This document shows positions 4,020-22,060 of a stretch of 24,419 nucleotides of DNA, in pieces. Source of the DNA: Planctomycetaceae bacterium (GTDB taxonomy: Bacteria > Planctomycetota > Planctomycetia > Pirellulales > Thermoguttaceae); the NCBI GenBank assembly GCA_031288765.1, contig JAITQV010000483.1, positions 1-24,419 on the forward strand, read 5' to 3'. The notes beneath the pieces are model-generated. The model was not told the DNA's origin and did no database searches. It saw only the letters and a list, made by a program, of their open reading frames with translations. Positions within the stretch are counted from its first letter, which is position 1. Every line of letters begins with the position of its first letter. A program made the position numbers and the translations under genes.

Positions 4020-4045
4020 AAATTTTTGTTTTCACACGGCAATCA

Positions 4046-4277
4046 GAATCTTAACCCCGCACGGGGTGTGATGTGCATAACCGGCGGTGAAGCGCAGCGC
4101 AACCGCCGGATCAGAATCCCCAATATCATAAAGCCCCGCATGGGGCGAGATTATCAATCAACACAACCATAATCTCGTCCCTGCGGGACTTTGTGAGGAG
4201 AGGGACATCTGATCCGTAGGTTGCGCTTCGCTCCACCTACGGTTATGCACATCTCGTCCCTTGCGGGACTAAGATTC
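4046..4277. repeat. 232-bp nested imperfect palindrome (REPIN/MITE-like)
   Basis: 70-nt arms 4046-4115 and 4208-4277 are inverted copies; inner inverted pair 4131-4154 / 4169-4190; each arm carries its own hairpins. Confidence 0.88.
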
Positions 4278-4348: not shown

Positions 4349-5224
4349 ATGACGAACAACAACTTATTTATTACGTCTATTTCTATTTTTATTGTTATCA
4401 ACGTAATCGGTTACGGACACAACAACACTGCCGCAAACACTGCCGCAGAATCTGTTTTAAATATTCCTGATGATGTGATTGTACTTGAAGGGCATACCGG
4501 TGAAGTAAGTTCCGCCGTCTTTTCCCCCGACAGTAAAAAAATTGTTACTGCAAGCTGGGATAAAACCGCGCGGATTTGGGATGCGGCAACAGGAAAAATA
4601 TTACAAAAACTCGAAGGACATACCAAAGCAATAAATTCCGTCCTTTTTTCTCCCGACGGCAAAAAAATTATTACGGCAAGCCGTGATACAACCGCCCGGA
4701 TTTGGGAGGCGGAAACAGGGAAAGAATTACAAAAACTCAAACATGACGATTATGTACGATTGGTTGCGATTTCCCCCGACAGTAAAACAATTCTGACGAC
4801 AAGTTTGGATTACACGGCGCGGGTTTGGGATGCGGCGACAGGGAAAATATTAAAAAAACTTGAAGGACATACCGATTCCATTGATTTTATTTCTTTTTCT
4901 TCTAACGGCAAAACGATTCTTACGGTGTGTTGGGACAAAACCGCGCGGATTTGGGATGTATCAACGGGAAGGGTATTACAAAAAATTGACGGTTATACGG
5001 ATCATTTTTCACGGGCTACAATTTTTTCACCCAACGGCAGAACATTTATTTTATTGAGTTTGGACAACAGTGTACGGGTTTGTGATGGGGAGACGGGCAG
5101 GGAATTACGAAAGCTTGAGGGTCATACGGGGGCGGTGTTATCGGCTGTTTTTTCTTCTAACGGCGAAAGGGTAGTTACGGCGAGTTGGGACAAAACCGCC
5201 CGTATCTGGAATCTAAAAAGATAA
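4349..5224 (+). CDS. WD40-repeat beta-propeller protein with N-terminal hydrophobic segment
   Basis: Six repeats of the type LEGHT...VFSPD.K.I.TASWDKTARIWD..TG; N-terminal hydrophobic stretch FITSISIFIVINVIG. Confidence 0.93.
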   Translation: MTNNNLFITSISIFIVINVIGYGHNNTAANTAAESVLNIPDDVIVLEGHTGEVSSAVFSPDSKKIVTASWDKTARIWDAATGKILQKLEGHTKAINSVLFSPDGKKIITASRDTTARIWEAETGKELQKLKHDDYVRLVAISPDSKTILTTSLDYTARVWDAATGKILKKLEGHTDSIDFISFSSNGKTILTVCWDKTARIWDVSTGRVLQKIDGYTDHFSRATIFSPNGRTFILLSLDNSVRVCDGETGRELRKLEGHTGAVLSAVFSSNGERVVTASWDKTARIWNLKR

Positions 5225-6216: not shown

Positions 6217-6313
6217 AGATTCAGTGTTTTAATATGGTTAAGTGATTTGGTGGTTAAGTGATTTAACGATTGGGGGTAATTGGGGATTGTTCGTGTTGCG
6301 GGGGGCTTTTTTC

Positions 6314-6398
6314 CAAAGTGTTCTCAAAGTGTTCTCAAAGTGTTTCCAAAGTGTTTCCAAAGTGTTTTCGGCAGTGTTTTCGGCAGTGTTTTCGGCAG
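6314..6398 (+). repeat. 11-bp then 12-bp short tandem array
   Basis: CAAAGTGTTCT x2, CAAAGTGTTTC x2, CAAAGTGTTTT, then CGGCAGTGTTTT x2 and a partial CGGCAG. Confidence 0.9.
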
Positions 6399-6537: not shown

Positions 6538-6643
6538 GTTAGCCGACAAATTTCTGTTTCCGCACGGCAATCGGAATCTTAACCCCGCAAGGGGTGTGAT
6601 GTGCATAACCGTAGGTGGAGCGAAGCGCAACCTACGGATCGGA
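6538..6643 (+). repeat. Solo-arm copy of the 4046-4277 element with shared upstream linker
   Basis: 106-bp near-direct repeat of 4010-4115; its hairpin CCGTAGGT-GGAGCGAAGCGCA-ACCTACGG is identical to the reverse complement of the right arm at 4213-4241. Confidence 0.88.
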
Positions 6644-6660
6644 ATTTCCAACCCGACAAA

Positions 6661-6910
6661 AGGTAGGCAACCGTTCGCCGATTTTGCGGTTAAAAATTCA
6701 CAAGGTAGGCAATCGTTCGCCGAAGGGCTTTCACCCAACGATTGCGTCGGCGTTAGCCGACAGCGAATTTGTACAATGTTGATTGCTTCGATTGCCTATC
6801 GGCAAGCGACCGTGGGTGAAAACCCTTCGGCGAAAGGTCGCCTACCTCTTAAATTGCGAATCATAAGGTAGGCAACCGCTCGCCGAACGATTGCGTCGGC
6901 GTTAGCCGAC
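6661..6910. repeat. Cluster of four REP-like copies (6661-6681 +, 6703-6761 +, 6791-6848 -, 6866-6910 +)
   Basis: AGGTAGGCAAYCGYTCGCCGA occurs three times on plus; a degenerate reverse copy ends in CCTACCTCTT at 6841-6850. Confidence 0.88.
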
Positions 6911-6927
6911 TGGGAATAAATTTGCCG

Positions 6928-7325
6928 CAAACGAGGGCAATCCCGCGGCAATCGGGGGCAATCCCAGGGCAAACGGGGGCAGATTTGCCACAACCGGGGG
7001 CAGATTCATGGCAAACGGAGGCAGATTTGCCACAAACGGGGGCAGATTTGCCACAAACGGGGGCAGATTCGTCACAAACGGGGGCAGATTCGTCACAAAC
7101 GGGGGCAGATTCATGCAAACGGGGGCAGATTCGTCACAAACGGGGGCAGATTCATGGCAAACGGGGGCAGATTTGCCACAAACGGGGGCAGATTTATCGC
7201 AAACGGGGGCAGATTTATCGCAAACGGGGGCAGATTTATCGCAAACGGGGGCAGATTTGCCACAAACGGGGGTAAGTTTACTACGAACTGGGGTAAGTTT
7301 GCAGCAATCGGGAACGAAATTAGTT
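6928..7325. repeat. 21-bp tandem array A, about 19 units, consensus CAAACGGGGGCAGATT + variable 5-mer
   Basis: Units read in register from 6928; variable tails TGCCA, CATGG, CGTCA, TATCG; one 20-bp unit at 7096-7115; degenerate units at both ends. Confidence 0.95.
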
Positions 7326-7366
7326 AATAGCGCCGCAAGCGGATTTCCTACCGCAATGGCAATAAT

Positions 7367-7416
7367 TCCGCATGCGACACGATTAATCATTCATTACTAA
7401 CTATTAACTATCAATT
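7367..7416 (+). repeat. Degenerate TCCGCATGCGA-(heptamer)n module
   Basis: TCCGCATGCGA then a 7-periodic run including ATTACTA ACTATTA ACTATCA. Confidence 0.55.
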
Positions 7417-7479
7417 GATCCCTCTCTTGCGGAATTGTATCTATTCAGTAGAATGTTTCCACAGAATAGATATGATTTG

Positions 7480-7575
7480 TTTTTAACGCAGAAGACGCTG
7501 AAATTTTGCGGAAAAACGCGGTTGTTATTGTTCTGCGTCTTTCGCGTACTTTTCCGCGTTTTCGTGTTAAAAAAA
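7480..7575. repeat. Inverted-repeat element of the TTAACGCAGAAGACGC type
   Basis: Starts TTTTTAACGCAGAAGACGC, contains TTCTGCGTCTTTCGCGT and ends GTGTTAAAAAA; roughly 9-bp periodic. Confidence 0.6.
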
Positions 7576-7603
7576 CATTCCGCCGAATAGATACGAAAAA
7601 TCA

Positions 7604-8566
7604 ATGTCTTTCAAATTATTTGACTCCTCCCAATTACATCTGAAACCGCTCCACGAACGTCAGCACGATATTTCACACGAAGTGATGATTTCCCCCGAAG
7701 CGGTTGCCGCGTTTGACCATCCGTCTTTGGATATTCTCGCCGAACAAATCCGGTACGCCCAAAACCGGAAAAGTACGGTTCTTTGGATGCTCGGAGCCCA
7801 TGTGATCCGAACCGGAAACGCCCCCAATATGATTCAACTTATGAAAGAAGGTTATGTAACCCATTTCGCCCTGAACGGAGCCGGCGCTATTCATGACTTC
7901 GAACTCGCCATGATCGGCGCAACCACCGAAAGTGTCGCTAAATATATCAGCGAAGGACAATTCGGACTTTGGAAAGAATCAGGAAAAATTAACGACGCCG
8001 TAAAAGAAGGCGCCGATAACGGACTCGGTTTCGGCGAAGCGGTCGGGCAAATGATTGATCGGGAAAATTTCCCCTACAAAGAAAACAGTTTGCTCTGGAA
8101 CGGATATAAAAATCACGTTCCGGTAACAGTTCATGTCGGCATCGGCTGCGATATTATCCACGAACACCCAAATGTCAACGGAGCCGCAATCGGAACAACT
8201 TCCTATACGGATTTTTTGATTTATGTTCAGTCAATTGCCAATTTGGAAGGCGGCGTCTTCTGCAATATCGGCAACGCCGTTATGGGACCGGAAATTTTCC
8301 TGAAAGCACTGTCTATGGCACGAAATGTTGCGCACCAAGACGGTAAAAAAATTACCGATTTTACCGCAGCCGTGTTTGATTTGCTCCCGCTGGAAGGACT
8401 AAACCTGTTGGAAATCCCGCCGAAACAGGATCCGCGGTCTTATTTTCGCCCTTGGAAAAGGATTTTGGCTCAAACGGTTCTTGACGGCGGTCAGGCGTTT
8501 TATGTTGCCGGTGAACATAAAAATACAATTCCCGCATTGACTCGGAAAGTCCGAACCGGAAAATAA
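7604..8566 (+). CDS. Conserved hypothetical protein with deoxyhypusine-synthase-like (NAD-binding) fold
   Basis: LGAHVIRTG...LMKEGYVTHFALNGAGAIHDFE parallels the DHS-family segment GA..PAG....LI..G.VD.LV.TGANLYHD; VPVTVHVGIGCDIIH parallels the DHS VP.F.P strand. Fold assignment is from memory of the family pattern. Confidence 0.7.
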   Translation: MSFKLFDSSQLHLKPLHERQHDISHEVMISPEAVAAFDHPSLDILAEQIRYAQNRKSTVLWMLGAHVIRTGNAPNMIQLMKEGYVTHFALNGAGAIHDFELAMIGATTESVAKYISEGQFGLWKESGKINDAVKEGADNGLGFGEAVGQMIDRENFPYKENSLLWNGYKNHVPVTVHVGIGCDIIHEHPNVNGAAIGTTSYTDFLIYVQSIANLEGGVFCNIGNAVMGPEIFLKALSMARNVAHQDGKKITDFTAAVFDLLPLEGLNLLEIPPKQDPRSYFRPWKRILAQTVLDGGQAFYVAGEHKNTIPALTRKVRTGK

Positions 8567-8647
8567 GAGTTGACGGATTGAGACGGATAATTCCTGTTGG
8601 TAATTCCTGTTGGTGATGTTATCTATATAACAAATAATGAGTAAATT

Positions 8648-10024
8648 ATGTCGGAGTTAATTATTAGTGTTTCCGGTTTGCGCGGTGTTGTCGGCGAAAC
8701 GCTGACGTTGGATGTTGCCATGCGTTATGCTGCGGCGTTTTCTGCGTCCATGCCGCCGGGAACTTTCGTCATAACCCGTGACAGCCGCCCAACCGGAACA
8801 ATGTTAACCGATGTTATTCACGCCATCCTGAATGCTTCCGGGCGTTCCACAATTGACGCCGAAATCGCCGCAACCCCCACAACCGGTATTTTGATTCGCC
8901 AATTCGGTGCTGTTGGCGGTATTCAAGTTTCCGCATCGCATAATCCCATTGAGTTTAACGGCATCAAACTGTTTTCCGGCGAAGGCAGGGTTATTCCCCA
9001 AACGTGCGGAAAAGATGTTTTGGAACATTACCGGAATGTGAAAACACAATGGGTTCCCCACGATCAAATCGGTTCCAGAACGCTTTGTAAAAACACCATT
9101 TCCGAACACCGTAAAGCAATTATGCAAACGGTTGATATTGAAGCGGTTGCCGGCAGGAAGTTTAAGGTTTTGCTTGATGCCAACCGCGGAGCCGGAGCAA
9201 TTCTTGGGGACTGGCTGCTCGAAGGGTTGGGCTGCGAATTGACCATTCTCGGCGAACAGCCCGACGGTCAATTTCAGCATACTCCCGAACCGACCGCCGA
9301 AAATCTTATTGATGTTTGCCGGCGTGTGAAAGAATCGGATGTGGACATTGCTTTTTGCCAAGACCCGGACGCCGACCGTGTTGCGATCATCGATGCCGAC
9401 GGTCGGTATGTCGGCGAAGAATACACAATAACGCTTTGTTTGGAACATCTCTTGCGAATCTCGGAAAATTCCCAACATCCGCATTGCAGGAAAAAAGGCG
9501 CTGTTGTTATCAACTGTGCTACGAGCCGGATGAACGAAGATATTGCGGAGCGGTATGGGGTTCCGGTTTTTCGGAGTGCGGTTGGCGAGGCGAATGTGGT
9601 TGATTTGATGCTTGAAAAAGGGGCAATGTTCGGCGGTGAGGGCAACGGCGGTCCGATTGATCCGCAAGTGGGTTTTGTTCGGGACAGTTTTGTCGGAATG
9701 GCGTTGATTCTTGACGCAATGGCGGCAACCGGAAAAACGGTTGCGCAGCTTGTTGACGAATTGCCGCATTATGCGTTAGTCAAGCGAAAAACCGGCGTCG
9801 AACTTTCCGAAGTTCCGGCAATTCTCGACAAAACTGCGGCAATGTTCCGGCATTTACCGTGCAATCGTTTGGACGGATTACGGATTGATCATGGAGATGC
9901 GTGGGTTCTTTTGCGCGGCAGCAATACCGAGCCGATTATTCGGATTTTTGCCGAAGCCCCAACCAATGATTATGCCAATCGTCTTTGTGATGAAATTGAA
10001 CGGATTGTTGCGTCGTCTTGCTGA
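8648..10024 (+). CDS. glmM: Alpha-D-phosphohexomutase (phosphoglucosamine mutase / PMM-PGM)
   Basis: Catalytic SASHNP, metal loop QDPDADR, sugar-binding GGEGNGG, C-terminal RGSNTEPIIR. Substrate specificity (GlmM versus PMM) is not resolvable from motifs. Confidence 0.88.
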   Translation: MSELIISVSGLRGVVGETLTLDVAMRYAAAFSASMPPGTFVITRDSRPTGTMLTDVIHAILNASGRSTIDAEIAATPTTGILIRQFGAVGGIQVSASHNPIEFNGIKLFSGEGRVIPQTCGKDVLEHYRNVKTQWVPHDQIGSRTLCKNTISEHRKAIMQTVDIEAVAGRKFKVLLDANRGAGAILGDWLLEGLGCELTILGEQPDGQFQHTPEPTAENLIDVCRRVKESDVDIAFCQDPDADRVAIIDADGRYVGEEYTITLCLEHLLRISENSQHPHCRKKGAVVINCATSRMNEDIAERYGVPVFRSAVGEANVVDLMLEKGAMFGGEGNGGPIDPQVGFVRDSFVGMALILDAMAATGKTVAQLVDELPHYALVKRKTGVELSEVPAILDKTAAMFRHLPCNRLDGLRIDHGDAWVLLRGSNTEPIIRIFAEAPTNDYANRLCDEIERIVASSC

Positions 10025-10061
10025 AAATCTTTTGCGGTTTGCTGAAAATCATTTACGGTTG

Positions 10062-10736
10062 TTAGCGGGTGAAAACGGCAATTTCTGCCGGAGGATACGA
10101 CTTGACTTTATTGGGTAACGGCTTAATAGGAAGCATGTCAAAGTTAAACCGGTTGTCCGATTCAATAACAAACAACGACCCCAACGGCGCCGAATCAATA
10201 AGATGTTGAAGCATTTCGAGCATTTCGGTTTGGCGGCTGACGTAAAAATCGTAAGGCGGCGAACAAAATACAAGCCAAGGTATCTTTTGGGTTTTATCTG
10301 GACACGTAATATTTGAATACGGATGTTCTTCTTGGTTTTTTGCCCAGAAAAAGGCGTCGGTTTTTCGCACATCGCAAACATTCAGCAAGTCCAACGATTC
10401 AAGGTTCTGCCGCAGCAGTGCTGCTGTTGGAAAGTGGAGTTCGATAACAGTTGCGGAAACCGCTCCTCGGCTGATTGCTTCAATTGCCAACGCTCCGGTT
10501 CCGCCGAACAAATCAACCACATGACGTCCCCGAACTTCCGGACCAATCAAATTAAACACCGCTTCTCGAACCCGATCTTTCATGGGTCTTACTCTGTTGT
10601 CGCCGATATACAGCAACTTGCTGCCGCGAAACCGTCCGCCGATAATTCGCAAACCGAGTGGTTCTTTTGGGGCGGGTTTGCTGCCGGTAGAGCGGTTTTT
10701 GGTTTTTTCTGCTGATTGCAATGCCGATTGCGGCAC
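10062..10736 (-). CDS. rsmD: 16S rRNA m2G966 methyltransferase
   Basis: LRIIGGRFRG, RPMKDRVREAVFN, DLFGGTGALAIEAISRGA, SPPY (variant of DPPY). The true start may be further downstream. Confidence 0.9.
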   Translation of the reverse strand: MPQSALQSAEKTKNRSTGSKPAPKEPLGLRIIGGRFRGSKLLYIGDNRVRPMKDRVREAVFNLIGPEVRGRHVVDLFGGTGALAIEAISRGAVSATVIELHFPTAALLRQNLESLDLLNVCDVRKTDAFFWAKNQEEHPYSNITCPDKTQKIPWLVFCSPPYDFYVSRQTEMLEMLQHLIDSAPLGSLFVIESDNRFNFDMLPIKPLPNKVKSYPPAEIAVFTR

Positions 10737-10853
10737 AGGCGGAACAAAAACACCTTGATTATTATTGTCAATTTCAAAAAGTGTTTCTTTCCGGTTACGG
10801 AAGTTTTTTTTATTTTATTTTTTCATACGAACCTCAAGACATTAAAACGTAAC

Positions 10854-11073
10854 TGTCTATTTTTATTAACCACAGAATACACAGAACACACGGAAATTAG
10901 TAAATTGCTAAGATCACAATCTTATTTTTTGAGGATACAAAATGAAGACAATAACAAAAAAACATTTTGTGTCCTAATTTTTTATAAATAAATGAATCTT
11001 GAAGTTGTACGTAAACATTATTACTAATACCAATTCCGTGTATTTCGTGTATTCAACGGTTAATAAATAGACA
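10854..11073. repeat. Inverted-repeat pair with 9-bp internal periodicity around a 138-bp AT-rich spacer
   Basis: Arms 10854-10895 and 11034-11073; the 28-nt cores match at 22/28; left arm reads ACCACAGAA TACACAGAA CACACGGAA. Confidence 0.8.
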
Positions 11074-11078
11074 ATTAC

Positions 11079-11414
11079 TTATGCTTTTTTCCACTCAACA
11101 GTTACTGAAGTCGAAATTCCGCCGCGAGGTGTAAAAGACGCCGTTAATTTGATCCAACGAGGTTGAAGCAAATCCACTAAATCATCCAATATCCGATTCG
11201 TAATATTTTCATAAAAAATTCCCTCATTGCGGAATTGTTGAAGATACAACTTCAAACTCTTAAGCTCCACACAAAGATTATCAGGAATATATTGAAATGT
11301 TAACGTTCCAAAATCCGGTTGCCCCGTCTTCGGACACACCGAAGTAAATTCCGGACAAATAATCTCAATCAAATAATCCCGATTAGGATATGAATTGGTA
11401 AAAGTTTCAAGCAT
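11079..11414 (-). CDS. queF: NADPH-dependent 7-cyano-7-deazaguanine (preQ0) reductase, type I (short)
   Basis: [15 protein letters not shown] (catalytic Cys and Asp), QueF motif [16 protein letters not shown]. Confidence 0.95.
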
Positions 11415-11461
11415 TGTTTTTTTGTTTCTAATGTTAGTATTAAAGAGGTGATACTTATTGA

Positions 11462-11490
11462 ATTTCAGTAATATTTCAGTAATATTTCAG
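11462..11490 (+). repeat. 11-bp tandem repeat x2.6
   Basis: ATTTCAGTAAT ATTTCAGTAAT ATTTCAG. Confidence 0.85.
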
Positions 11491-11512
11491 CGGAATTTTC
11501 GTTAAAAGCCGG

Positions 11513-11561
11513 TCAAGATAAAGTCTCAACATAAAGTCTCAAGATAAAGTCTCAACATAAA
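11513..11561 (+). repeat. 13-bp tandem repeat x3.8 with alternating variants
   Basis: TCAAGATAAAGTC TCAACATAAAGTC TCAAGATAAAGTC TCAACATAAA, flanked by inverted GCCGG (11508) / CCGGC (11563). Confidence 0.88.
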
Positions 11562-11569
11562 ACCGGCAA

Positions 11570-12061
11570 TCACAAAGCCGACAACCGTTCGGCAAGAAGT
11601 TTGAGAGCCTCGCCGTCCAGACGAAATGTAGTCCAGTCTTCAACAGGATGACCGCCAAGTTTTTTGTAAAACGCAATACTATCGGTATTCCAGTCGAGCA
11701 CCATCCAATCCAAACGAAAACAACCGCGCAATCGGGCAATTCGCGCCAATTCACAAAAAAACATTGTTCCAATCCCCAACCCCCGAAACTGCGGACGTAC
11801 AAAAAGGTCTTCAATGTAAATTCCCGGCTGCCCGCGAAATGTCGAATAAGTAAAATAATATAACGCAAAACCAACCGTTGCCCCCTCATACTCCGCCAAC
11901 AAAACCTCAATCCGTTGCGAAGAAATCCATTCGTACAAAACCTCTTCCGTTATAAACACCGATTCCAAAAGATGTTCATACTCCGCAAGTTCCCGAATAA
12001 ACCGCAATACCAATGCCGTATCCTCCGAAACAGCAATCCGTATGATCGTTTTTTGGCACAT
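11570..12061 (-). CDS. GNAT acetyltransferase, diamine/spermidine N-acetyltransferase (SSAT)-like
   Basis: FIRELAEYE, YSTF.G..GIYIEDLFVRPQFRGLGIG (acetyl-CoA loop), VLDWNT.SIAFYKKLG. Confidence 0.92.
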   Translation of the reverse strand: MCQKTIIRIAVSEDTALVLRFIRELAEYEHLLESVFITEEVLYEWISSQRIEVLLAEYEGATVGFALYYFTYSTFRGQPGIYIEDLFVRPQFRGLGIGTMFFCELARIARLRGCFRLDWMVLDWNTDSIAFYKKLGGHPVEDWTTFRLDGEALKLLAERLSAL

Positions 12062-12083
12062 AAATTGTTCCTGAAATTGTTTA

Positions 12084-12533
12084 TCAATCGGAAGAAGAAA
12101 CGATCTCTTTCATGGCAATGTAAGGTCCCAAAGAACGGGTTTTCTCGACGATTTCCGTAATGAATTTCTGAAACTTTGCGCCTTCAGCGGCGGAAATCCA
12201 TGAGAAATGAACACGGTTTGTATCAATGCCAAGCGTGTTCAGTAACTCCCGAAACAGAATCCAACGCCTTCGCGCATGAAAATTACCGCTCGTGTAATGG
12301 CAGTCGCCCGGATGACAACCACTCACTAACACCGAATCGGCTCCGTTTTCAAAAGCTTTGATAATCAAATTAAAATCAATTCGCCCCGTACAAGGAAGAC
12401 GTATAATCCGTAAATTGGAAGGGTATTCAAGACGGCTTGTCCCGGCAAGATCAGCGCCTAAATACGTACACCAATTACAAACAAACGCAATTACTTTCGG
12501 TTCAAATTGTGTTGCAGTTGATTCGGCGGACAT
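12084..12533 (-). CDS. mvhD: MvhD/FlpD-type [2Fe-2S] hydrogenase/heterodisulfide-reductase iron-sulfur subunit
   Basis: FVCNWCTYLGADLAGTSR, RLPCTGR, GCHPGDCHY, RVHFSWISAAEG. Confidence 0.92.
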   Translation of the reverse strand: MSAESTATQFEPKVIAFVCNWCTYLGADLAGTSRLEYPSNLRIIRLPCTGRIDFNLIIKAFENGADSVLVSGCHPGDCHYTSGNFHARRRWILFRELLNTLGIDTNRVHFSWISAAEGAKFQKFITEIVEKTRSLGPYIAMKEIVSSSD

Positions 12534-12856
12534 GTTTTTTGTCAGGGTTGAGTTTCACAAAAATACTTCGTAACATTTTACGCAAAATACCATTTTATTT
12601 CCTGCTGTACTTGCGTTGGGAATGATCTCTCTTGTTCCCGATTAAAGTAAGGAAACAATATAACAGGAAAAACCGGCTTTTCAAGATATCGCCGTCTTTC
12701 CAACATATTTTTTATCCGAACCGCAACGGCAATCCAAAACAAGCGATGTCCCGCCAAACCGTCAACACCAACAACTTTCGTCCGGCATTACATTACATTG
12801 TATTACATTACCGGTCGGCAATTTGACTTTGTTACGGATAAAAGTTGCTGCCGAAA

Positions 12857-14464
12857 TTACATTCCCGCTGAATTTGTTGACGCAGCCTGATAATCGGTCA
12901 TCCATCTTTTAACCGCAGCAACAGCGGCATCACGAACAATCATTGATTTATCGTTCATCAAATGTTTCAGCGTTTCGATGGATTCCTTCGTTAAAATCGC
13001 CGATAACGCCGAAATCGCAGCACAACGAACATTGGCTTCATCATCTGTTTCCGCCAGTTCAATTAAACGTTTTATAAATTGAGAACTCAAACCTGTTGCA
13101 AAAGCGGCAAGACACGCCGAAAGACGCCGAACCGGAATCGGTGAAAAAAGATCGTCCCGAATCACCGTCAACGTATTCGGATCAACAAGGTAAACATAAT
13201 GCCCCATTGTTTTGGCGGATTCCGCAGTCATCTGGTTGATCCGCGAAGTAAAAGTTTCAATATGAAATTCCGGCGTTGTTTCGTAAATTGCCTTTCGGAT
13301 TTCCGTTTCCCGCCGATTGATTAACTGCTCGAATTGCGTACTCAATTCTTTCACTTGACGGGATTTGAGAATACGGAACACCATTGACGCCGTTTCGGCA
13401 TCGGAATTATTGACGAACTTAAGCAGCATCGCATTGACATCATCGCCGACCAAATTACGTACCGCAACCGCCGCAGCACGGCGCGATTCCACCGACGGAC
13501 GCTCAAAAAAGAAACGATAAAGAGCCACCATCTGGTATTTGGGAAAACTGCTCGCCTGTAACAACTGAACCGCACACGGTTCCAATCCCTCAATCAATTT
13601 CGGCAAATTGGGATTCTTGGGAGTAAACCAGGCAAAAGACCGAAACCTCCTCAACGCCTCCTGAAATTCGGGCGCCGGATTCATACCGACAAATTCCAAC
13701 ATTTTACGCACAAAGAACGGATCAGACCGCGTTGCCAAAATCTCGTCAATCACCGCAGGACTGTCCGGATCACAAAAATAGCTGAGCAACAGCCTGATAT
13801 AACTTCCGTGCTGACCGTTGAGAAGCAAGTCTGATATCCGCTTTCCCGCCGGAGAACGGTGATCGTTGGCAAGAGTTAACATCGTTGCAAAATCCTTTTT
13901 CGTAATAATCAAAAGACTCTGCAGCAATTCGTCAATCCCGTGAACCGCATAACGCTTAACCGGTCCGTCCAATTGCTCGATAAACCATTCGCGGCGTTTA
14001 TCGAAATTCCGGCGTTCGGACTCGGAAGTGTTGAGCAGGTCGGCATAAAACAATTCCGCAAGTTGGAGAACCATTGTTCTCGATTCTTGGGCGCGTTTTT
14101 CGTTGGTTCCTTCCAGATTGGCGAGAACGGACGGAAGCGTTTCGTAAAGTTTATGCTCCAGAATAACAGCCGCCGCCGCTTCATGGAGAACATCGTTCTC
14201 ATTCCTGAACGCCGTGTCCGTCAAACGGAAAAGACGATCCCGCTGCAAGGATTTTGTCTTCAACCAATAGTCTTTGTCCTGAATAAAACACTTGAACAAA
14301 TTCAAATAAATCTCAGCGTCTTTCCTAAGATAAAGACTGTCAAAAGCCAGTGTGCGAATACGATCAACCGAATGACCAAGAAGTTTCAAAAGAATTTCAT
14401 TGGATGCCGGATTCGGGGATTTACCGAGAAATCGAATCGTTTTTTCCTGAAATTGCGTTGTCAT
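12857..14464 (-). CDS. Conserved alpha-helical protein with C-terminal HEAT-like repeats
   Basis: 535-aa open frame, helical composition, C-terminal ETDDEANVRCAAISALS and DKSMIVRDAAVAAV HEAT-type motifs. Confidence 0.75.
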   Translation of the reverse strand: MTTQFQEKTIRFLGKSPNPASNEILLKLLGHSVDRIRTLAFDSLYLRKDAEIYLNLFKCFIQDKDYWLKTKSLQRDRLFRLTDTAFRNENDVLHEAAAAVILEHKLYETLPSVLANLEGTNEKRAQESRTMVLQLAELFYADLLNTSESERRNFDKRREWFIEQLDGPVKRYAVHGIDELLQSLLIITKKDFATMLTLANDHRSPAGKRISDLLLNGQHGSYIRLLLSYFCDPDSPAVIDEILATRSDPFFVRKMLEFVGMNPAPEFQEALRRFRSFAWFTPKNPNLPKLIEGLEPCAVQLLQASSFPKYQMVALYRFFFERPSVESRRAAAVAVRNLVGDDVNAMLLKFVNNSDAETASMVFRILKSRQVKELSTQFEQLINRRETEIRKAIYETTPEFHIETFTSRINQMTAESAKTMGHYVYLVDPNTLTVIRDDLFSPIPVRRLSACLAAFATGLSSQFIKRLIELAETDDEANVRCAAISALSAILTKESIETLKHLMNDKSMIVRDAAVAAVKRWMTDYQAASTNSAGM

Positions 14465-14729
14465 GGAAATCTAATAAAACCGAAGTAAATAAAATCCGTC
14501 TGCTCTGTTTTTCGAACAATTCCAAGCGGAAACTGCAACTATTGAACCGTTTGGCTGTCGGACCGGAAAATCAATACTCTTAATTTTCCTAATATATCAG
14601 GCGGAATGCCCTATCGTCAGAAACTCCGCAGAGTCAGGATTACCGTTGCGGCAAACCGATAATCTTGTCCCTACGGAGTTCGGATAAACCGTCAAGGATC
14701 AATCAACACAACAAAACCGATCCCCAACA

Positions 14730-15749
14730 TCAATGTTTGCAACAGCAACACCCGCCGCCGGACTTTTTGCCGCTGTTCAACATCTCGCGAACACCGTCCA
14801 GTTGTCCGGCACTGCCGAGAACATTATTTTTGTGGATAATGTATTCGGCGTAGGCTTGGATGAAGATTTTCCCCGGCGGACGAAGGTCGAAATTCGCCGG
14901 ATCATCACGGAATTGTTCACGGTGAATCGCACACCAAACCAAACGACCGTCGGTATCGATATTGATTTTGGTAACGCCGAGTTTGGCGGCGGGGAGATAT
15001 TGTTTTTCATCGACACCGCTGGCGTCTTTAAGTTTTCCGCCGGCATTGTTAATACGTTCCACCCATTCGTGCGGAACACTGCTGCTGCCGTGCATTACCA
15101 GCGGGAAATTTTTGGGGATTGCCTTTTGAATTTTTTCCAGCACATCGAAATGCAAACCTTGCTTTCCGGTAAACTTGAAGGCTCCGTGTGAAGTTCCGAT
15201 GGCGACCGCCAAGGAATCAACACCGGTTTTTTCGATAAATTCGGCAGCCTGAGCGGGGTCGGTCAATTTGACACTTCCGACCACATCTTCTTCGACTCCG
15301 CCGAGTTGCCCAAGTTCCGCTTCAACAACAATATTTTTAGCGTGGGCTTTATCGACGATTTTTTTCGTGATTTCGACATTTTTAGCAAATTCCTCATGGG
15401 AAGCGTCGATCATCACGGAGCTGTAAAATCCGCTGTTGATACAATCGCAGCAAGCTTCTTCGGTGCCGTGGTCGAGGTGAACCGCGAAAATTGCTTCCGG
15501 GAAGACCTCGTCGGCAGCGCGAATCAATGCTTCGAGCATACGTTTATCGCTGTACGAGCGGGCGCCGCGAGAGATTTGGATGATAAACGGGGCGCTGTTG
15601 GTTTGGTCGACGGGGTCGTCGTTTTTCGCTTTTTTACCGAGGTTCCCGCGGAACAGACCGACGGTTTGCTCGAGGTTGTTGATGTTATACGCTCCGATGG
15701 CGTATTTTCCGTAAGCGTGTTGAAACAAATCTTTTGTAGTAACAATCAT
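14730..15749 (-). CDS. fba: Class II fructose-1,6-bisphosphate aldolase
   Basis: VHLDHG, SSVMIDAS, VEAELG, LAVAIGTSHG, PLVMHGSSS, KINIDTD. Confidence 0.96.
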   Translation of the reverse strand: MIVTTKDLFQHAYGKYAIGAYNINNLEQTVGLFRGNLGKKAKNDDPVDQTNSAPFIIQISRGARSYSDKRMLEALIRAADEVFPEAIFAVHLDHGTEEACCDCINSGFYSSVMIDASHEEFAKNVEITKKIVDKAHAKNIVVEAELGQLGGVEEDVVGSVKLTDPAQAAEFIEKTGVDSLAVAIGTSHGAFKFTGKQGLHFDVLEKIQKAIPKNFPLVMHGSSSVPHEWVERINNAGGKLKDASGVDEKQYLPAAKLGVTKINIDTDGRLVWCAIHREQFRDDPANFDLRPPGKIFIQAYAEYIIHKNNVLGSAGQLDGVREMLNSGKKSGGGCCCCKH

Positions 15750-15754
15750 ATAAT

Positions 15755-15760
15755 TCTCCT
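15755..15760 (-). promoter_or_regulatory. Shine-Dalgarno site of fba
   Basis: AGGAGA on the minus strand, 5 nt before the ATG at 15749. Confidence 0.6.
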
Positions 15761-15839
15761 AAGAGGTTGTAAGGGGGACAAAAGTTTCCGCATTATTATA
15801 TTGCAAGGGCGTAACAGAGTAAAGCCCCTGCGATGCGGG

Positions 15840-16232
15840 TTATCCATAACCGAGTTGTTCGAGTTGATTTTCATTGAGACCGTGAAAGTGTCCTAATTCA
15901 TGGAGGATGGTGATGCGGATTTGCCGGCGGAGTTCTGATCGGTTGCAGGTTCCGTGTTCATTGGCGGCAAGGGCGTAAATTCCCCGCCGAAACAGGATAA
16001 TTGTATTGGGGGTTTGAGCCTGCCAATTGTATTTTTCGCCCAAGGGGATTCCGACAAAGCAGCCGCAGAGATCGGTGTTGGGTTTCATTTTTATATCCCG
16101 AACCAAATGGCGGGAAGGGCGGTCTTCGACGTGCAATGGAATTTCTTCGAGTAAATTTTTAACTTTTTTTGGGAGACGTTCGAGAACCCATTTGACTTGT
16201 TTATCGAAATAGGCGCGTTTGGAGGGAGTCAT
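15840..16232 (-). CDS. Zincin-like (Zincin_1) metallopeptidase family protein
   Basis: G.FVGIPL, PNTIILFRRGI, ELRRQIRITILHELGHFHGLNENQLEQLGYG. Confidence 0.9.
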   Translation of the reverse strand: MTPSKRAYFDKQVKWVLERLPKKVKNLLEEIPLHVEDRPSRHLVRDIKMKPNTDLCGCFVGIPLGEKYNWQAQTPNTIILFRRGIYALAANEHGTCNRSELRRQIRITILHELGHFHGLNENQLEQLGYG

Positions 16233-16434
16233 GCAATTGGCAAACGGAGGTAATTGTCTTTATTTAATAAGTACGGAGAACAGCGGCGGGAAGTCTGCGG
16301 AAGGTGCGGATTTTCACTGATGCGGATTTTCGCCGGTGATATATTTTTTATCGACCCTATTGCACCGTTTTTAAAAAGACAAAACAAATAAAAATTGGGT
16401 CTTTATTTGGTCGTTTATTTTCAGTATTAACACG

Positions 16435-16477
16435 GAATCTTAATTCTGCAAGAGGTGTGATGTGTATAATCGGCGGT
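16435..16477 (+). repeat. Decayed partial copy of the 4046 element arm
   Basis: GAATCTTAATTCTGCAAGAGGTGTGATGTGTATAATCGGCGGT versus GAATCTTAACCCCGCA(A/C)GGGGTGTGATGTGCATAACCGGCGGT; differences are five C>T and one G>A. Confidence 0.75.
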
Positions 16478-16581
16478 AATTTGTGGGGAGTTGGCAGTGG
16501 AATAATGTGGGGGTGAAAAATTTTTCGCCTCTGCCGACAGCGGGATTTACGGTTTTTGGGATTGTAAATCAAAAGATCGGC

Positions 16582-16976
16582 GAACATTTGCCGACCTGCA
16601 TCGCAAAACAGATAAAAGTGTTAGCGAGTTTACCGGAGGTTTCGGCGAGTTTACCGGAGGTTTCGGCGAGTTCGCCGGAGGTCTTGGCGAGTTCGCCGGA
16701 GGTCTTGGCGAGTTCGCCGGAGGTCTTGGCGAGTTCGCCGGAGGTCTCGGCGAGTTCGCCGGAGGTCTCGGCGAGTTCGCCGGAGGTCTTGGCGAGTTCG
16801 CCGGAGGTCTCGGCGAGTTCGCCGGAGGTCTTGGCGAGTTCGCCGGAGGTCTTGGCAAGTTCGCCGGAGGTCTCGGCAAGTTCGCCGGAGGTCTCGGCGA
16901 GTTCGCCGGAGGAAATTGGTAGATACCAAAAAAGAATTGGTACCTACCGGAAAGCAATTACTGTGTACCCCAAAGC
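16582..16976. repeat. 21-bp tandem array B; core 16624-16912 (about 14 units of GCGAGTTCGCCGGAGGTCTYG) with degenerate in-register flanks
   Basis: Units read in register from 16624; AATT...TACC...AAAG recurs at 16914, 16935 and 16956; TTTGCCG at 16587 is in register with TTCGCCG. Confidence 0.95.
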
Positions 16977-17066
16977 GGTAATTTTTCTCAAATTGAGATT
17001 AAAAAAACATTCCGCTGAATAATTACCCAATAATTTCAGAGGGTTTAGAGATTGACGATTCTCCGT

Positions 17067-17094
17067 TATTAACTACTCCCTGCTAACTATTCAC
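17067..17094 (+). repeat. Degenerate heptamer run
   Basis: TATTAAC TACTCCC TGCTAAC TATTCAC. Confidence 0.45.
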
Positions 17095-17105
17095 TAAAAA
17101 TAGAG

Positions 17106-19160
17106 TTAGGTTCGTAATTGGAATTGCGCGACCAACTGCTGCAACCGGCTTGCCATATCACTCATCTCATTGGCAGCACTCGCCGATTCTTCGGCAGCCG
17201 CCGTGTTTTGCTGTGTTACCGCATCAATTTGCTGAAGACCAATCGTTACCTGCGTAACTCCCTGAGCCTGTTCATTACTCGCTTCGGCAATCCCCGAAAC
17301 CAAACCGGTTGTTTGCCGAATCTGCTCAACTATCGTATTAAGAACTTCCGCTGTGTGTGTTGCCACTTCACCGCCCTTGTGAATTTCATTGCCGCTGGTT
17401 GAAATCAAATCGGTTGTTTCTCTTGCGGCTTTAGCACTTCGAGCGGCAAGATTTCGGACTTCCTCCGCCACAACCGCAAACCCCTTGCCGTGAACACCCG
17501 CCCGCGCCGCCTCCACCGCCGCATTCAACGCCAACAAATTCGTCTGGAACGCAATATCGTCAATCACTTTAACCACCCGCTGAATCTCATTCGAATTTTT
17601 AGTAATCCGGTTCATTGCCTCATTCATTTCTTTCATTGCGTTTTGACCGTCCGCTGCGGCGTGAGTTGCTTTTTGAGCGAGGTCGCGAGCCTCCGAAGCA
17701 CTTTGGGCGTTTGCTTTTGTTTGGCTGCTGATTTCACTCATGGACGCCGTGATTTCCTCAAGACTGGCTGCGGATTCCTGCGCCCCGCTGGACAAAGTCT
17801 GCGCGGCAGACGAAACCTCTCCGGCTCCGGTCGTTACCTGCTTAACACTTTCATCGATTTGCAGAAGAGTGCTGTTGACCTGACTCAACATCTTGGCAAG
17901 ATTCAAATTCATCGAATCCAGCTCGCTCTTTTCCTTAACATCAACCCGCCAATTCCCGTCCGCCAATGCAGTTGCCATTGTGTCAATCGTTTTGTAATCA
18001 TTCAGCACCGAATTTCCTACATGCGCCATTCCGCCGATTTCGTCTTGCCGGTTTAGCAATTCATGCGGAATTTCCACATTCAAATCGCCTTCCAAAACAA
18101 CTTTTTTAAGTGTTTCCATTACTTTTGAAAGTCCGGTTGTAATATTCCGGCTCAGAACAAAACTGAAAACAAGACCAAGAACAAACGCAAAAAACGACGT
18201 AACCGGAATAACCGCCAACATAAACCGGCATGTACTTACCGAATCACTCTGAATTTGCTCAACCTGTTTGGTCAGGCGTGTGGTGATGTCGTTTCTGAAT
18301 GTTTCCATATCGGTGATTTTTTTTGCTTGTTCGGCATCAATATCACTTTGTTCTTTAAGATAATTAACATTGTTTGCGAAAATTGTTTCCCACTCTTTAA
18401 GCACCGTATCAATTTCTGCGGCGGCGGTTTTACCGGCGTCGGTGGTTAATTCGGATTTGACGATTTTCAGTTCGGCACGCAAGTCCGCCAAATTCTTGTT
18501 AATATTTTCCGTAATAGCGGTTTTGTTTTTGGGGTCTATTTCCGAAAGATATTGATAAAAGAAACGGCGAAGTCTTGCGAAGGTGGTGGAGGAATGATTG
18601 ATTTGTTTTAATTGGATGGATCGTTTTTCGGAAAAATAAAGATGTTGATCGATTTCTTTTGCTTCTTCGGGCGTTTTCATGGCGTTTTCAATCAGATCGG
18701 AGAGTGCGGTCAAATTTTGGCTGATGGAGTTGGCATGTTCTTTTAAAATGTCAACTTCTTTCACGCGATTATCTTCAACCACATACCAACGTTCGTCCAG
18801 ATCGGCAAATCCTTTGTAAGCGGTTACGAGGTTATCGAGAATTTCCTGTTCTTCGTTTTGGAGGAGCGGTTTTGTTTCTTTGGCGATATCCTGAAGTTTT
18901 TGATCATATTCTTTTCGGTTTTCGGAATATTTTCTATCGCGATAGATGATGCCGTTAAGAGCGGCAATCTGTGCATGGAACATCGTATTGCGAATTTCGA
19001 CGATTCGCTGTTGGATGTTTTCCATGTTAATGACATTGTGGGTGGCGTCGGCGCTGCGGGACAATCCCCAGTAACCGCAAAATGCAACCAACAGCAACAA
19101 CAATAAAACAAACAAAAATCCTGCAAACAGTTTTTTTTCTATTTTGAATTTGTTCAACAT
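17106..19160 (-). CDS. Methyl-accepting chemotaxis protein
   Basis: TM1, helical periplasmic sensor, TM2, HAMP region, signalling hairpin [37 protein letters not shown]; GGAG SD upstream. Confidence 0.96.
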
Positions 19161-19465
19161 AATTCTACTCCGTGTTTTTTATGGGGGAAAACGACAGTAA
19201 TGATTTTAGTGTAATGTTTCCGGTGTAATGGTTCTAAGGATTTTCAAAAACAGTAATACGGTAATAATACGGTAATAATACTGTCCGAATTTTGATTTTC
19301 CTTTCAATTGGAGATTAGTATAATTTATTTTAATCCCAATTACCAGAATGGTAAGGTTAAAAATTAAAAAAATTTTTCCGAAGATTACCGGTTATACGTA
19401 TTTTTTTAATGATTGGTTGGATTATTTGGTTTTGGAGTATTTTTTATGTCCTGATGAAGCCAACG

Positions 19466-19525
19466 CGGTGGCGGGTGAAAATCCTTCGGCGAGCGGTTGC
19501 CAATCTGATGATTAACAATTCACAA
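19466..19525 (-). repeat. Degenerate REP-like copy
   Basis: CGGGTGAAAATCCTTCGGCGAGCGGTTGCC, then TGATTAACAATTCACA, which matches the minus-strand flank TGATTAACAATCCACA of the 21641 copy. Confidence 0.75.
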
Positions 19526-19744
19526 TATTGTCTAAGTCTTGATTTTCAACCGTAAACAAGGTATAAGTAAATGAAACAATTTGGTTGGATTTGTGTTATC
19601 ATGTTGGGAATGATATTGGTCGATTTTATTTTTATTCCTGCGAATTTCGCGGACGAAACTCGCGGACGAAATAATCAGACAAAACAATCGGGCGAAATAA
19701 TCGGTTGAATCATTGCCGAAAATTTATTGGTTGCGGAACATTTT

Positions 19745-21181
19745 ATGCAGAAGTTTTATATTGAGACGGTGGGATGTCAGATGAATGTTTTGGACAGCGA
19801 ATTGGTTTACTCCGGTTTGGTTCAATCCGGTTTGGTTCCGGCAACAGACCGCCGCAATGCCGACATCATTCTGTTCAACACGTGCAGCATACGGCAACAC
19901 GCCGAAGATAAAATCTACAGCGCATTGGGAAGATTAAAACATTGGAAAGTATTGAAACCTTATGGGGTTCTCGGCGTGATTGGCTGCATGGCTCAGAAAG
20001 ATCAGAACATCATTTTTCAACGTGCGCCTCATGTTGATCTTGTTGTGGGTCCCGGTCAATTGGAACTGCTTCCCGAAACGGTTCACCAGCTTCTTGACGA
20101 AAAGTTACAGCGAACCTCCGAACCAAACCTTGTTGGTCGGGGAGAGGAATCCGGCAAAAAACTTTTGGTCAGTCTGAAACGCCGTGAACACCGTCATGCT
20201 GAAGTTGCGGGCAGTTTCCGTCTTTTCGATCCGGTTCGGAACCCCGAAGCACGGCTCAACCGTTTTCAGGCGATGGTTCGTATCATGTTCGGTTGTGATA
20301 AATTCTGCACGTACTGTATTGTTCCGTCGGTTCGGGGACCGGAGCAAAGCCGTCCGCCGCAGGAAATTCTTGACGAGGTACGGAGATTGGTTGGTCAGGG
20401 GGTGGTGGAGATCACATTGATTGGTCAGGCGGTTAATTCGTACTGTTATAAAGCGGGCGGAAAAACGGTATTGCTTTCGGATATTCTTTATTTGGTTTCG
20501 GCGGTTGAGGGGTTACGGCGGCTCTGTTTTGTGACGAATTATCCTCGCGGAATGGGGGAGGATTTACTTTGGGCGGTGCGGGATTTGCCGAAGGTTGCGG
20601 GGCATCTTCATGTTCCGGCTCAAAGCGGTTCGGACGGGGTGCTTGGGCGGATGAAAAGGAACTACTCCGCAACCGAATACCGCGAACTCGTAAACCGTAT
20701 CTATTCAACCATTCCCAACGCCTCTATAACCAGCGATTTTATTGTCGGGTTTTGCGGGGAGACGGACGGCGAGTTTTTGCAGACGGTTGAATTGGTGGAA
20801 GGCAGCCGGTTCAGGAACAGTTTTATTTTCAAATACAGTGAGCGACCCGGTACAAAATCGGCGGAACTTTATTCCGATGATGTTCCCGAGCCGGTTAAGA
20901 AGATGCGGAATCGTGTATTGCTGGCTATTCAGGACAAAATTTCGCTTGAGCAGAACCGGCAATTTATTGGTAAAACGGCGGAGATTCTTGTGGAGGGGAT
21001 AAGCAGGCAATTTGAAAACGGCGGGGTTCAGCTTTCCGGTCGTACTTCGTGTGGTCGGATAGTTGTTTTTGATGCGCCGGACGACCGCCTCACCGGTCAA
21101 TTCCTGAAATTGAATATTTATGATGCGGCTCCGTTTACGTTGTTTGGACGGCAACCCGAACCGGTTTTTCACGGGAAATAA
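19745..21181 (+). CDS. miaB: tRNA (N6-isopentenyl-A37) methylthiotransferase
   Basis: ETVGCQMN, NTCSIRQHAE, GCMAQ, radical-SAM CDKFCTYC, HLHVPAQSGSD, DFIVGFCGET, C-terminal TRAM domain. ATG at 19745 preferred over TTG at 19727. Confidence 0.96.
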   Translation: MQKFYIETVGCQMNVLDSELVYSGLVQSGLVPATDRRNADIILFNTCSIRQHAEDKIYSALGRLKHWKVLKPYGVLGVIGCMAQKDQNIIFQRAPHVDLVVGPGQLELLPETVHQLLDEKLQRTSEPNLVGRGEESGKKLLVSLKRREHRHAEVAGSFRLFDPVRNPEARLNRFQAMVRIMFGCDKFCTYCIVPSVRGPEQSRPPQEILDEVRRLVGQGVVEITLIGQAVNSYCYKAGGKTVLLSDILYLVSAVEGLRRLCFVTNYPRGMGEDLLWAVRDLPKVAGHLHVPAQSGSDGVLGRMKRNYSATEYRELVNRIYSTIPNASITSDFIVGFCGETDGEFLQTVELVEGSRFRNSFIFKYSERPGTKSAELYSDDVPEPVKKMRNRVLLAIQDKISLEQNRQFIGKTAEILVEGISRQFENGGVQLSGRTSCGRIVVFDAPDDRLTGQFLKLNIYDAAPFTLFGRQPEPVFHGK

Positions 21182-21289
21182 ACGCAAAAAAGTCAAAACC
21201 CGTCAATTAACCGCCCGAAAAGCGGTTGTCTGCCTTTTCCTTACAAAACCGCAGAAAACCAACCATGAAACCCCAAAAATATCAAAAAA

Positions 21290-21490
21290 TGTCATACGAC
21301 AATTATCAATTGTCACACGACAATCGCCGGTTGTCATACGACAATCGCCGGTTGCCAAACGACAATCGCCGGTTGCCAAACGACAATTGCCGGTTGTCAT
21401 ACGACAATTGCCGGTTGTCGCACGACAATTGCCGGTTGTCATACGACAATTGCCGATTGTCACACGACAATTACCGGTTGTCGCACGACA
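21290..21490. repeat. 21-bp tandem array C, about 9.5 units, consensus TGTCATACGACAATTGCCGGT
   Basis: Units read in register from 21290; each junction forms GACAA-TTGCCGG-TTGTC. Confidence 0.95.
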
Positions 21491-21573
21491 TTTTTTGCAT
21501 TTTGCACGTTTGAATGCTTCAAAAAGATACAAATTCGACCAAAATTGCCGCAAAATAAAACAATCATTGGAAT

Positions 21574-21612
21574 AAATAGTTGATAATTGAGAGTGGATAG
21601 TTCGCATGCGGA
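21574..21612 (-). repeat. TCCGCATGCGA-(heptamer)n module
   Basis: Minus strand: TCCGCATGCGA ACTATCC ACTCTCA ATTATCA ACTATTT. Confidence 0.75.
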
Positions 21613-21640
21613 TTGCCGACCATGTGGATTGTTAATCAAG

Positions 21641-21757
21641 AGGTAGGCAATCGTTCGCCGAACGATTGCGTCGACATCAGCCGACAATGAATTTATGTCA
21701 TTTGGTTATTTTGGTTGCCTATCGGCAAGCAACCGCTACGGCGAGCGGTTGCCCTAC
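21641..21757. repeat. Two REP-like copies (21641-21685, 21713-21757)
   Basis: GTAG + perfect hairpin GCAATCGTTC-GCC-GAACGATTGC; the second copy shares TTGCCTATCGGCAAGC(G/A)ACCG with 6792. Confidence 0.85.
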
Positions 21758-22060
21758 GCTACTGTATTGACTAAAAGGCTTTCAGCCCTATTTTCAAGAC
21801 AGATGACTGACTGGATACAACTATTTTTTTAACTGCGAAACCCGTGAAACAAAACAAAGGACTGAATAATAGACGCAATAACGTTTCTTTTCTTGTACCG
21901 TGTCTTTTTTCGATTTTATAATAAGGAATTTCTAAAAATTTTGTTTTTTACAAGTCCGGCACTGAAAAAATGAATGTCCGTAAATTTTTTTCGGATTGGC
22001 GGATTAAAGATTCCGTTTTTAGGAATTTCAAAGAGTCATTTAGAAAATAAAGTCAAATAA

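Follow-up and report, generated by a model that had tools for sequence, protein, structure and literature searches.

Intergenic 21-bp tandem arrays as probable cores of a lineage-specific superfamily of composite repeat elements in a termite-gut planctomycete

We observed that a 24,419-bp contig (C162) of a Planctomycetaceae bacterium, analysed here in its entirety and referred to as the window, carries three intergenic tandem arrays (A, B and C) whose period is 21 bp in each case. The contig belongs to a Thermoguttaceae-like metagenome-assembled genome (MAG) from termite gut (4.39 Mb in 748 contigs, 42% GC, 77% complete), in which arrays of this period recur at hundreds of loci. Our data suggest that the arrays are probably the tandem cores of repeat elements that are non-coding, modular and dispersed through intergenic DNA, and that form a large superfamily specific to this lineage. 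Their common period would then be explained mainly by their being paralogous cores of composite elements with conserved flanks.

Tandem repeats were called with Tandem Repeats Finder (TRF) in the window and across the whole genome, which gave a genome total of 1301 merged repeat loci. Array A was called at 6927-7272 with a core at 6970-7272 (14.5 copies, 87% matches), array B at 16624-16912 (13.8 copies, 95% matches) and array C at 21290-21490 (9.6 copies, 88% matches), all on the + strand. The consensus units differ among the three, as an earlier note made from the sequence alone had proposed, and it is indeed the period and not the sequence that the arrays have in common. Direct reading of the sequence also confirmed that the centres are homogeneous, being made of runs of variant units, and that the edge units are diverged. 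All three arrays lie in long spacers (~870-1390 bp) with Pfam-supported genes on either side and are thus intergenic.

The predicted genome-wide excess of period 21 was pronounced. TRF assigned this period to 334 of the 1301 loci and placed a further 92 at period 42 or 63, while periods 19, 20, 22 and 23 were almost absent. Among arrays with at least 8 copies, 101 of 118 have period 21; the others are microsatellites, heptamers, two 12-mers, one 63-mer and two 99-mers. Period sharing therefore goes far beyond chance. Arrays of period 21n (±1) span 71.8 kb, or 1.6% of the genome, and the density of arrays with a period of at least 10 and at least 4 copies is ~63 per Mb. By crude open reading frame (ORF) prediction, 135 of the 148 arrays with at least 5 copies are intergenic, in contrast to periods 12, 15 and 18, which are mostly coding.

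We grouped the units of 169 arrays with at least 4 copies into families, allowing up to 4 mismatches in all rotations and on both strands. This yielded ~60 unit families, most of them present at several loci and 26 of them singletons. Shuffled units are almost never less than 6 mismatches apart (0.01% quantile), and we counted 28 between-family links at 6 mismatches or fewer, compared to 0-1 among shuffled representatives (~5 after allowing for the number of comparisons). Judged by sequence similarity, the unit families are not fully independent. The description of the arrays as sequence-unrelated consequently holds for their differing consensus units but not for the family similarity network, which stands well above the shuffled null.

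The composite structure is clearest around array C (21290-21490), whose unit is a dyad with 5-6-bp arms and a spacer and whose family occurs at 14 loci. Flanking sequence is common to all 14 loci, over ~60 nt on the left and ~80 nt on the right. The left module (21225-21289, + strand), aligned by eye, has 41 genomic matches, 33 of them beside 21n arrays; the right module (21491-21568, + strand) has at least 36 copies and 54 BLAST matches, 46 of them beside arrays. A boundary histogram showed that right-module homology between copies stops sharply 70-85 nt past the array, and the left outer boundaries fall into two groups. The right module stands at a constant distance from arrays of families f0, f1 (the array C family), f5, f8 and f46, and when aligned on this module the units of all five families fall into a single register. 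With at least five unit families in one register of one frame, these paralogous elements have kept frame and period while differing in unit sequence. The core beside the right module ranges from 1.9 to 26.8 units. One copy of this frame holds a lone A-run/palindrome/T-run between the modules, possibly a founder-like state. The inverted motifs adjoining cores of this type are limited to a short A-run/T-run and imperfect inverted motifs. At several loci two or three different arrays stand in series, with their order kept.

Array A has a comparable organization. Its left edge (6927-6981, + strand) consists of diverged units, 21 bp long, that belong to a related type with arrays of its own at ~30 other loci, and BLAST of 6905-6969 returned 37 genomic matches, 33 of them beside 21n arrays; this unit type shares a flank with a sister family. 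The core (6970-7272, + strand) contains runs of variant units, and its unit family was found at three loci (C25, C162 and C679). The right edge (7273-7330, + strand) is decayed on reading and includes a short flank motif also seen beside arrays of the sister family, where the BLAST flank comparison is weaker (4 matches). End modules around a tandem core at many dispersed loci, the A-Bn-C layout known from BOX elements, were thus found in the frames of arrays C and A.

Array B differs in its surroundings. Its core (16624-16912, + strand) combines 13.8 copies at 95% identity with a 5+2+5 dyad in the unit, which is a singleton at the family threshold and, compared by eye, matches an f6-family unit of contig C97 at 17 of 21 positions. 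Abutting the core are three in-register 21-bp units of another family, f10 (16913-16975, + strand), recognized by reading against that family; BLAST gave no match at its threshold. They are followed by a dispersed f10-family flank module (16976-17035, + strand) that ends in an A-run/CATTCCGC motif, with 54 BLAST matches for the module and 169 genome-wide copies of the motif. By BLAST, the flanks of array B contain only generic dispersed repeats.

These observations fit a model in which each element has the layout end module, (21-bp unit)n, end module. Founder elements would have fixed the period on one or a few occasions, and it would have been inherited from then on. Slippage or unequal recombination within an array would homogenize new variants, and such concerted evolution would let copies diverge in sequence while the period stays, leaving homogeneous centres and decaying edges. 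Hairpin-related processes might keep or re-create the dyad found in most units: a cruciform or single-strand hairpin could be under selection, or quasipalindrome-templated mutation could be at work. The elements would spread like MITEs (miniature inverted-repeat transposable elements) or other selfish repeats, irrespective of neighbouring genes, and this unusual bacterial satellite DNA is probably selfish in nature, not a functional system of a new kind.

Four observations weigh against this model. We found no target-site duplications, empty sites or candidate transposase, the target-site duplications not being open to analysis. Several frames, including the flanks of array B, have no recognizable mutual homology, so that a single origin of the period is unproven. 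Stop codons are under-represented in the units in every one of the six frames, with 39 of 127 consensus 21-mers open in all six compared to 11% of shuffles. Finally, period-shifted arrays, with periods 22 and 23 or higher-order periods 41, 43 and 64 built from 20-22-bp units, make up ~4-5% of arrays though families differ at about half of their positions; at an assumed indel:substitution ratio of ~1:10, several-fold more would be expected under neutral drift, the number looking roughly 10-fold too low. The existence of such arrays indicates that indel variants can spread, and their scarcity points to a possible extra constraint on repeat length beyond the inheritance model. We consider it unlikely that some lineage-specific process or function actively keeps the period at two helical turns, indifferent to sequence yet intolerant of altered length. 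Examples would be a protein that reads shape or hairpins, or a structural part played by the arrays in organizing the nucleoid or RNA.

The earlier note had also raised a repeat-generating mechanism with a fixed 21-nt step. In one form, this would be a lineage-specific process with a step of ~21 nt that makes and extends the arrays, for example an enzyme or nucleoprotein ruler acting on hairpin DNA. It would account for one period across many unit families, for long arrays being almost all of period 21 and for several congeners sharing the trait with different units. Coding sequence lends it some support as well, since about ten coding 21-nt (7-residue) repeats with at least 4 copies were found genome-wide compared to one array at period 18 and none at 24. 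Isolated two-copy duplications likewise number 50 at 21 bp, compared to 1-14 elsewhere in the 18-24 bp range. Of the 35 isolated 21-bp duplications in intergenic DNA, however, 28 belong to known families, and the 6 unrelated ones are no more numerous than those at neighbouring lengths. The shifted-period arrays also speak against a fixed step, as do the lack of 7-nt or 10-nt sub-periodicity in the units and the fact that the presence of Y1_Tnp, the REP-associated tyrosine transposase (RAYT; REP, repetitive extragenic palindrome), does not track arrays across the genus. Since the duplication excess stems from known families and shifted periods exist, inheritance with rare drift is favoured over a strict ruler, which we regard as improbable. 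Two further candidates were rejected: an origin from a triple heptamer or a 10.5-bp phased motif, as the units have no lag-7 or lag-10 self-similarity, and a CRISPR array, as the units are contiguous and have no spacers.

The 21-nt unit also equals seven codons, and the arrays had been proposed to encode heptad-repeat micro-proteins. Units are open in a mean of 4.9 of six frames compared to 4.2 for shuffles, and the genome does contain a few true coding 7-residue repeats at other places. Against coding, variable sites show no codon periodicity (0.531 vs null 0.538, p = 0.46), and of 127 arrays 8 have no open frame and 11 have one only. The openness extends to both strands and all frames instead of being confined to one, and the conserved flank ATG shifts frame relative to the array among copies. 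We therefore reject this proposal as barely credible. On contig C246, the apparent 693-aa ORF that takes in an array is an upstream extension of a gene whose real signal-peptide start lies downstream of the array. The genuine coding 7-residue tandem repeats were seen on C460, C114, C380, C148, C623 and C238, such as PAPTPAT x12 following a signal peptide and a C-terminal DDEYEDE x11.

Next, we turned to the dyads. A perfect dyad arm of at least 5 bp is present in 56% of units compared to 11% of shuffled units, and the internal dyad symmetry described earlier is clear in arrays B and C but weak in array A, where the arms are 4 bp. In the shared frame, the outer arms TTG..CAA are constant, and each of the four states seen at the inner three pairs is fully compensated: this genome has GAG/CTC, TCG/CGA and GTA/TAC, and the congener G010 has TAG/CTA. 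The covariation of the inner dyad bases between families is genuine. It fits selection on a single-strand hairpin or cruciform and equally fits quasipalindrome-templated mutation, which is a known mutational process. Other families in the shared frame have broken dyads, so pairing is not obligatory.

We weighed whether the arrays are functional rows of hairpins, in RNA or extruded DNA, that serve as bidirectional terminators, stabilizers of mRNA 3' ends or supercoiling/insulator sites in the manner of REPs and bacterial interspersed mosaic elements (BIMEs). Besides the dyad enrichment and the compensatory changes in the arms, the copy with a single A-run/palindrome/T-run resembles a terminator, shifted-period arrays are rare, and the element folds far better than shuffles (z = -5.9), which is nevertheless expected of any palindromic repeat. 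G.T mismatches exceed A.C mismatches on the oriented strand (113 vs 64), counts that are not independent because units share arrays. On the other hand, 44% of units lack a good dyad, and the Rfam 15 covariance models gave no relevant match at E up to 1 over the whole window. Arrays are also distributed among spacer types as spacer length would predict, with no preference for convergent or co-directional spacers, and the oriented elements show no bias (29 face the downstream gene and 23 oppose it). We consider such a function unlikely, and it is likewise unlikely that selection maintains the dyad together with a register of two helical turns.

The same dimensions suggest phased binding platforms, each dyad acting as an operator on the same helical face. 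Iterons and the centromere sites sopC and parC are ~20-bp direct repeats that often contain internal dyads and are spaced by an integral number of helical turns; they occur once per replicon beside rep or par genes and have one sequence. The period of two helical turns, the unit dyads of 12-16 bp and the likeness to sopC- and parC-type repeats would all agree with this idea. Here, in contrast, there are hundreds of chromosomal loci and dozens of unit sequences, with no cognate gene beside A, B or C and no replication or partition gene adjoining arrays in the window. With ~60 unrelated dyads at >300 loci, dozens of cognate proteins would be required. The arrays show no positional bias to promoters, and with A or T runs of at least 4 in just 20% of families, a general curvature signal is lacking. 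A platform of this kind is, in our view, highly improbable.

An assembly artefact had to be considered as well, since 21 is the smallest default k of a common metagenome assembler, all evidence comes from short-read MAGs and 67 of the 334 period-21 arrays touch contig ends. The single public run that matches the sequence is a termite-gut DNA metagenome. Independent contigs of this run, built by a different assembler at k=31, span the unique DNA and end precisely at the borders of the arrays (array A, 7243; array B, 16621 and 16900; array C element, 21233), and the summed k=31 depth rises from ~15 to ~105 in the array B bin, a ~7-fold increase that fits ~14 copies. The ordered runs of variant units, the decayed edges, the recurrence of the same families with different flanks and the arrays of period 22, 23, 41, 43 and 64 are also at odds with an artefact, and some congeners assembled in the same way lack arrays in 150-200 kb. 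The chance that assembly produced the arrays is close to negligible. Among the public runs looked up for expression, no RNA run contains the sequence.

To characterize the distribution of the arrays, we sampled six congeners (52-261 kb each) and counted period-21 arrays with at least 4 copies. G010 has 6 arrays in 261 kb, all with different units, G001 has 4 in 213 kb and G008 has 1 in 52 kb; none were found in the sampled DNA of G005 (152 kb), G009 (61 kb) or G011 (200 kb). By the same count, the source genome has 3.85 arrays per 100 kb. A copy of the right module at 76% identity adjoins a 13-copy 21-bp array in G010, whose different unit is a perfect 7+2+7 palindrome. In the wider Planctomycetota, 80 MiaB loci (~480 kb) contain no long non-coding 21-bp array. 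The presence of arrays in three of six congeners and their absence from these wider loci suggest that the trait is lineage-specific and common to several species with different units. Scans of JGI metagenome contigs with right-module patterns gave 0 matches and then 7 chance matches. G011 (loci L131-L140) has 56% GC over 200 kb compared to 40-44% in the others and almost no tandem repeats; it may have been misplaced, or be a highly divergent congener.

The arrays had also been placed in a context rich in REP-like sequences and heptamer runs. This proximity is real in the window, but it does not exceed the background of long spacers. By permutation, a REP or MITE-end motif lies within 150 bp of 15% of arrays compared to 23% upon random placement in long intergenic runs, and a heptamer run within 150 bp of 1% compared to 5%. 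Heptamer runs occur in the window, at 54 loci in the genome and also in congeners. When units were examined for REP heads, GTAG..CTAC appeared only in one sub-family (TGTAG..CTACA units), and most families lack a GTAG- or CGTC-headed palindrome of 20-40 nt. Among 25 congeners, the occurrence of Y1_Tnp does not match that of arrays: G010 has arrays and no Y1_Tnp match, while G009 and G011 have Y1_Tnp and no arrays in the sampled DNA, these genomes being incomplete.

The copy near array A that the earlier note called REP-like is a MITE-like element of ~148 bp (6702-6849, no strand assigned), defined by inverted-repeat pairs as having terminal inverted repeats of ~26 bp. Partial copies lie at ~6651-6675, 6866-6915 and 21642-21760, and its end motif has 581 copies genome-wide. 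A dispersed 30-mer followed by a GTAG-headed REP hairpin (6573-6645, + strand) stands nearby; the 30-mer carries a CCCC-GCAA-GGGG hairpin, has 111 copies in this genome, with related copies at 4045-4075 and 16434-16464 and was found in none of 20 relatives. Both features are context and not part of the array. On contig C720 (locus L141), tandem copies of the GTAG-headed REP with an 83-bp period border a Y1_Tnp (RAYT-like) gene on either side, an arrangement that looks like a classical REP-RAYT pair. A second REP type, composed of a GTAGGGCAACGCCCTAC-like hairpin and a 'GGGCTTTCAGCCC' hairpin, flanks a second Y1_Tnp gene on contig C606 (locus L142) and is also present in the window downstream of array C (21745-21800).

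Our literature searches for 21-bp systems in Planctomycetes yielded nothing described, in line with the claim that no named family has this architecture. The closest described systems are the pneumococcal BOX elements, BIME-2 of E. coli and rare dispersed bacterial satellites. The boxB unit of BOX is ~45 nt long and essentially one sequence. Here, in contrast, the unit is 21 bp, at least 5 families share the same frame and ~60 exist overall, and the arrays surpass those of BOX by a wide margin in both length (up to 27 units) and number. The BOX elements of Streptococcus pneumoniae and S. suis have the structure boxA-(boxB)n-boxC (Croucher et al. 2011, PMC3049150), and they resemble the present elements as dispersed intergenic composites with conserved end modules and a tandem core of variable copy number. 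Further likenesses are mosaics with other small repeats, open frames on both strands and predicted stem-loops (PMC3049150). Terminal inverted repeats and target duplications are established for BOX (PMC3049150); the likeness drawn here is one of layout.

BIME-2 and REPs share with the arrays the tandem amplification of short palindromic units between genes, and this genome has GTAG-headed REPs beside Y1_Tnp and some 21-bp units with GTAG..CTAC dyads. BIME units of Escherichia coli alternate in orientation and are longer. The present arrays instead are direct repeats with a 21-bp period, most families lack a GTAG head and the RAYT does not follow the arrays; GTAG-tagged REPs are reviewed in PMC3733652. 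Dispersed non-coding satellites have been described in Leptospira interrogans, Chloroflexus aurantiacus (Fam_1_14_23) and Methanocella conradii (Subirana and Messeguer 2019, PMC6749651), where species-specific scattered non-coding tandem repeats, rare in prokaryotes, were read as satellite transposition. Those families have one unit sequence each at few to 23 loci, compared to one period, ~60 families and >300 loci here. The array density of ~63 per Mb likewise compares with a maximum of 23 per Mb among the bacteria of that study, although definitions differ. What is new relative to BOX, BIME-2 and dispersed satellites is one period with dozens of unit sequences, together with this density.

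Non-coding satellite DNA is in general scarce in bacteria, with dispersed families reported as rare exceptions (PMC6749651). The unit turnover, apparent concerted evolution and decayed edges seen here are as in eukaryotic satellites, and the arrays offer a compact bacterial setting for studying how satellites are born, spread and homogenize and why repeat length outlives sequence. They have practical consequences too, as they fragment short-read assemblies and, being open in many frames, give rise to spurious long ORFs and artificially extend neighbouring ones. If the period is actively held, these planctomycetes would carry a previously undescribed kind of 'satellite DNA system'.

The array neighbours in the window are ordinary genes, encoding an M50 peptidase, a phosphoglucomutase-family protein, a class II aldolase, a methyl-accepting chemotaxis protein (MCP), MiaB and a GH13 enzyme. 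The MiaB-like protein has ~80% identity to proteins of termite-gut Planctomycetaceae/Thermoguttaceae MAGs. Six loci with the same genes (~80% identity) lack a 21-bp array, and gene order around miaB is rearranged in the nearest relatives. Comparing 17106-24253 of the window with the nearest relatives (loci L002, L004 and L005), we found the MCP gene downstream on the same strand in L002 and L004. In L005 the GH13 gene is divergent and upstream of miaB, with 92% identity compared to 78% for MiaB. Since gene order differs in this region, the repeat-filled spacers coincide with rearrangement breakpoints.

Other tandem repeats of the window are of different kinds. The long spacer of array A also holds two adjoining short arrays (6310-6398), an 11-mer x5.3 and a 12-mer x3.2, which are unrelated to the 21-mers. 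A 126-bp tandem repeat at 4520-4989 corresponds to the WD40 repeat of the protein encoded at 4349-5224.

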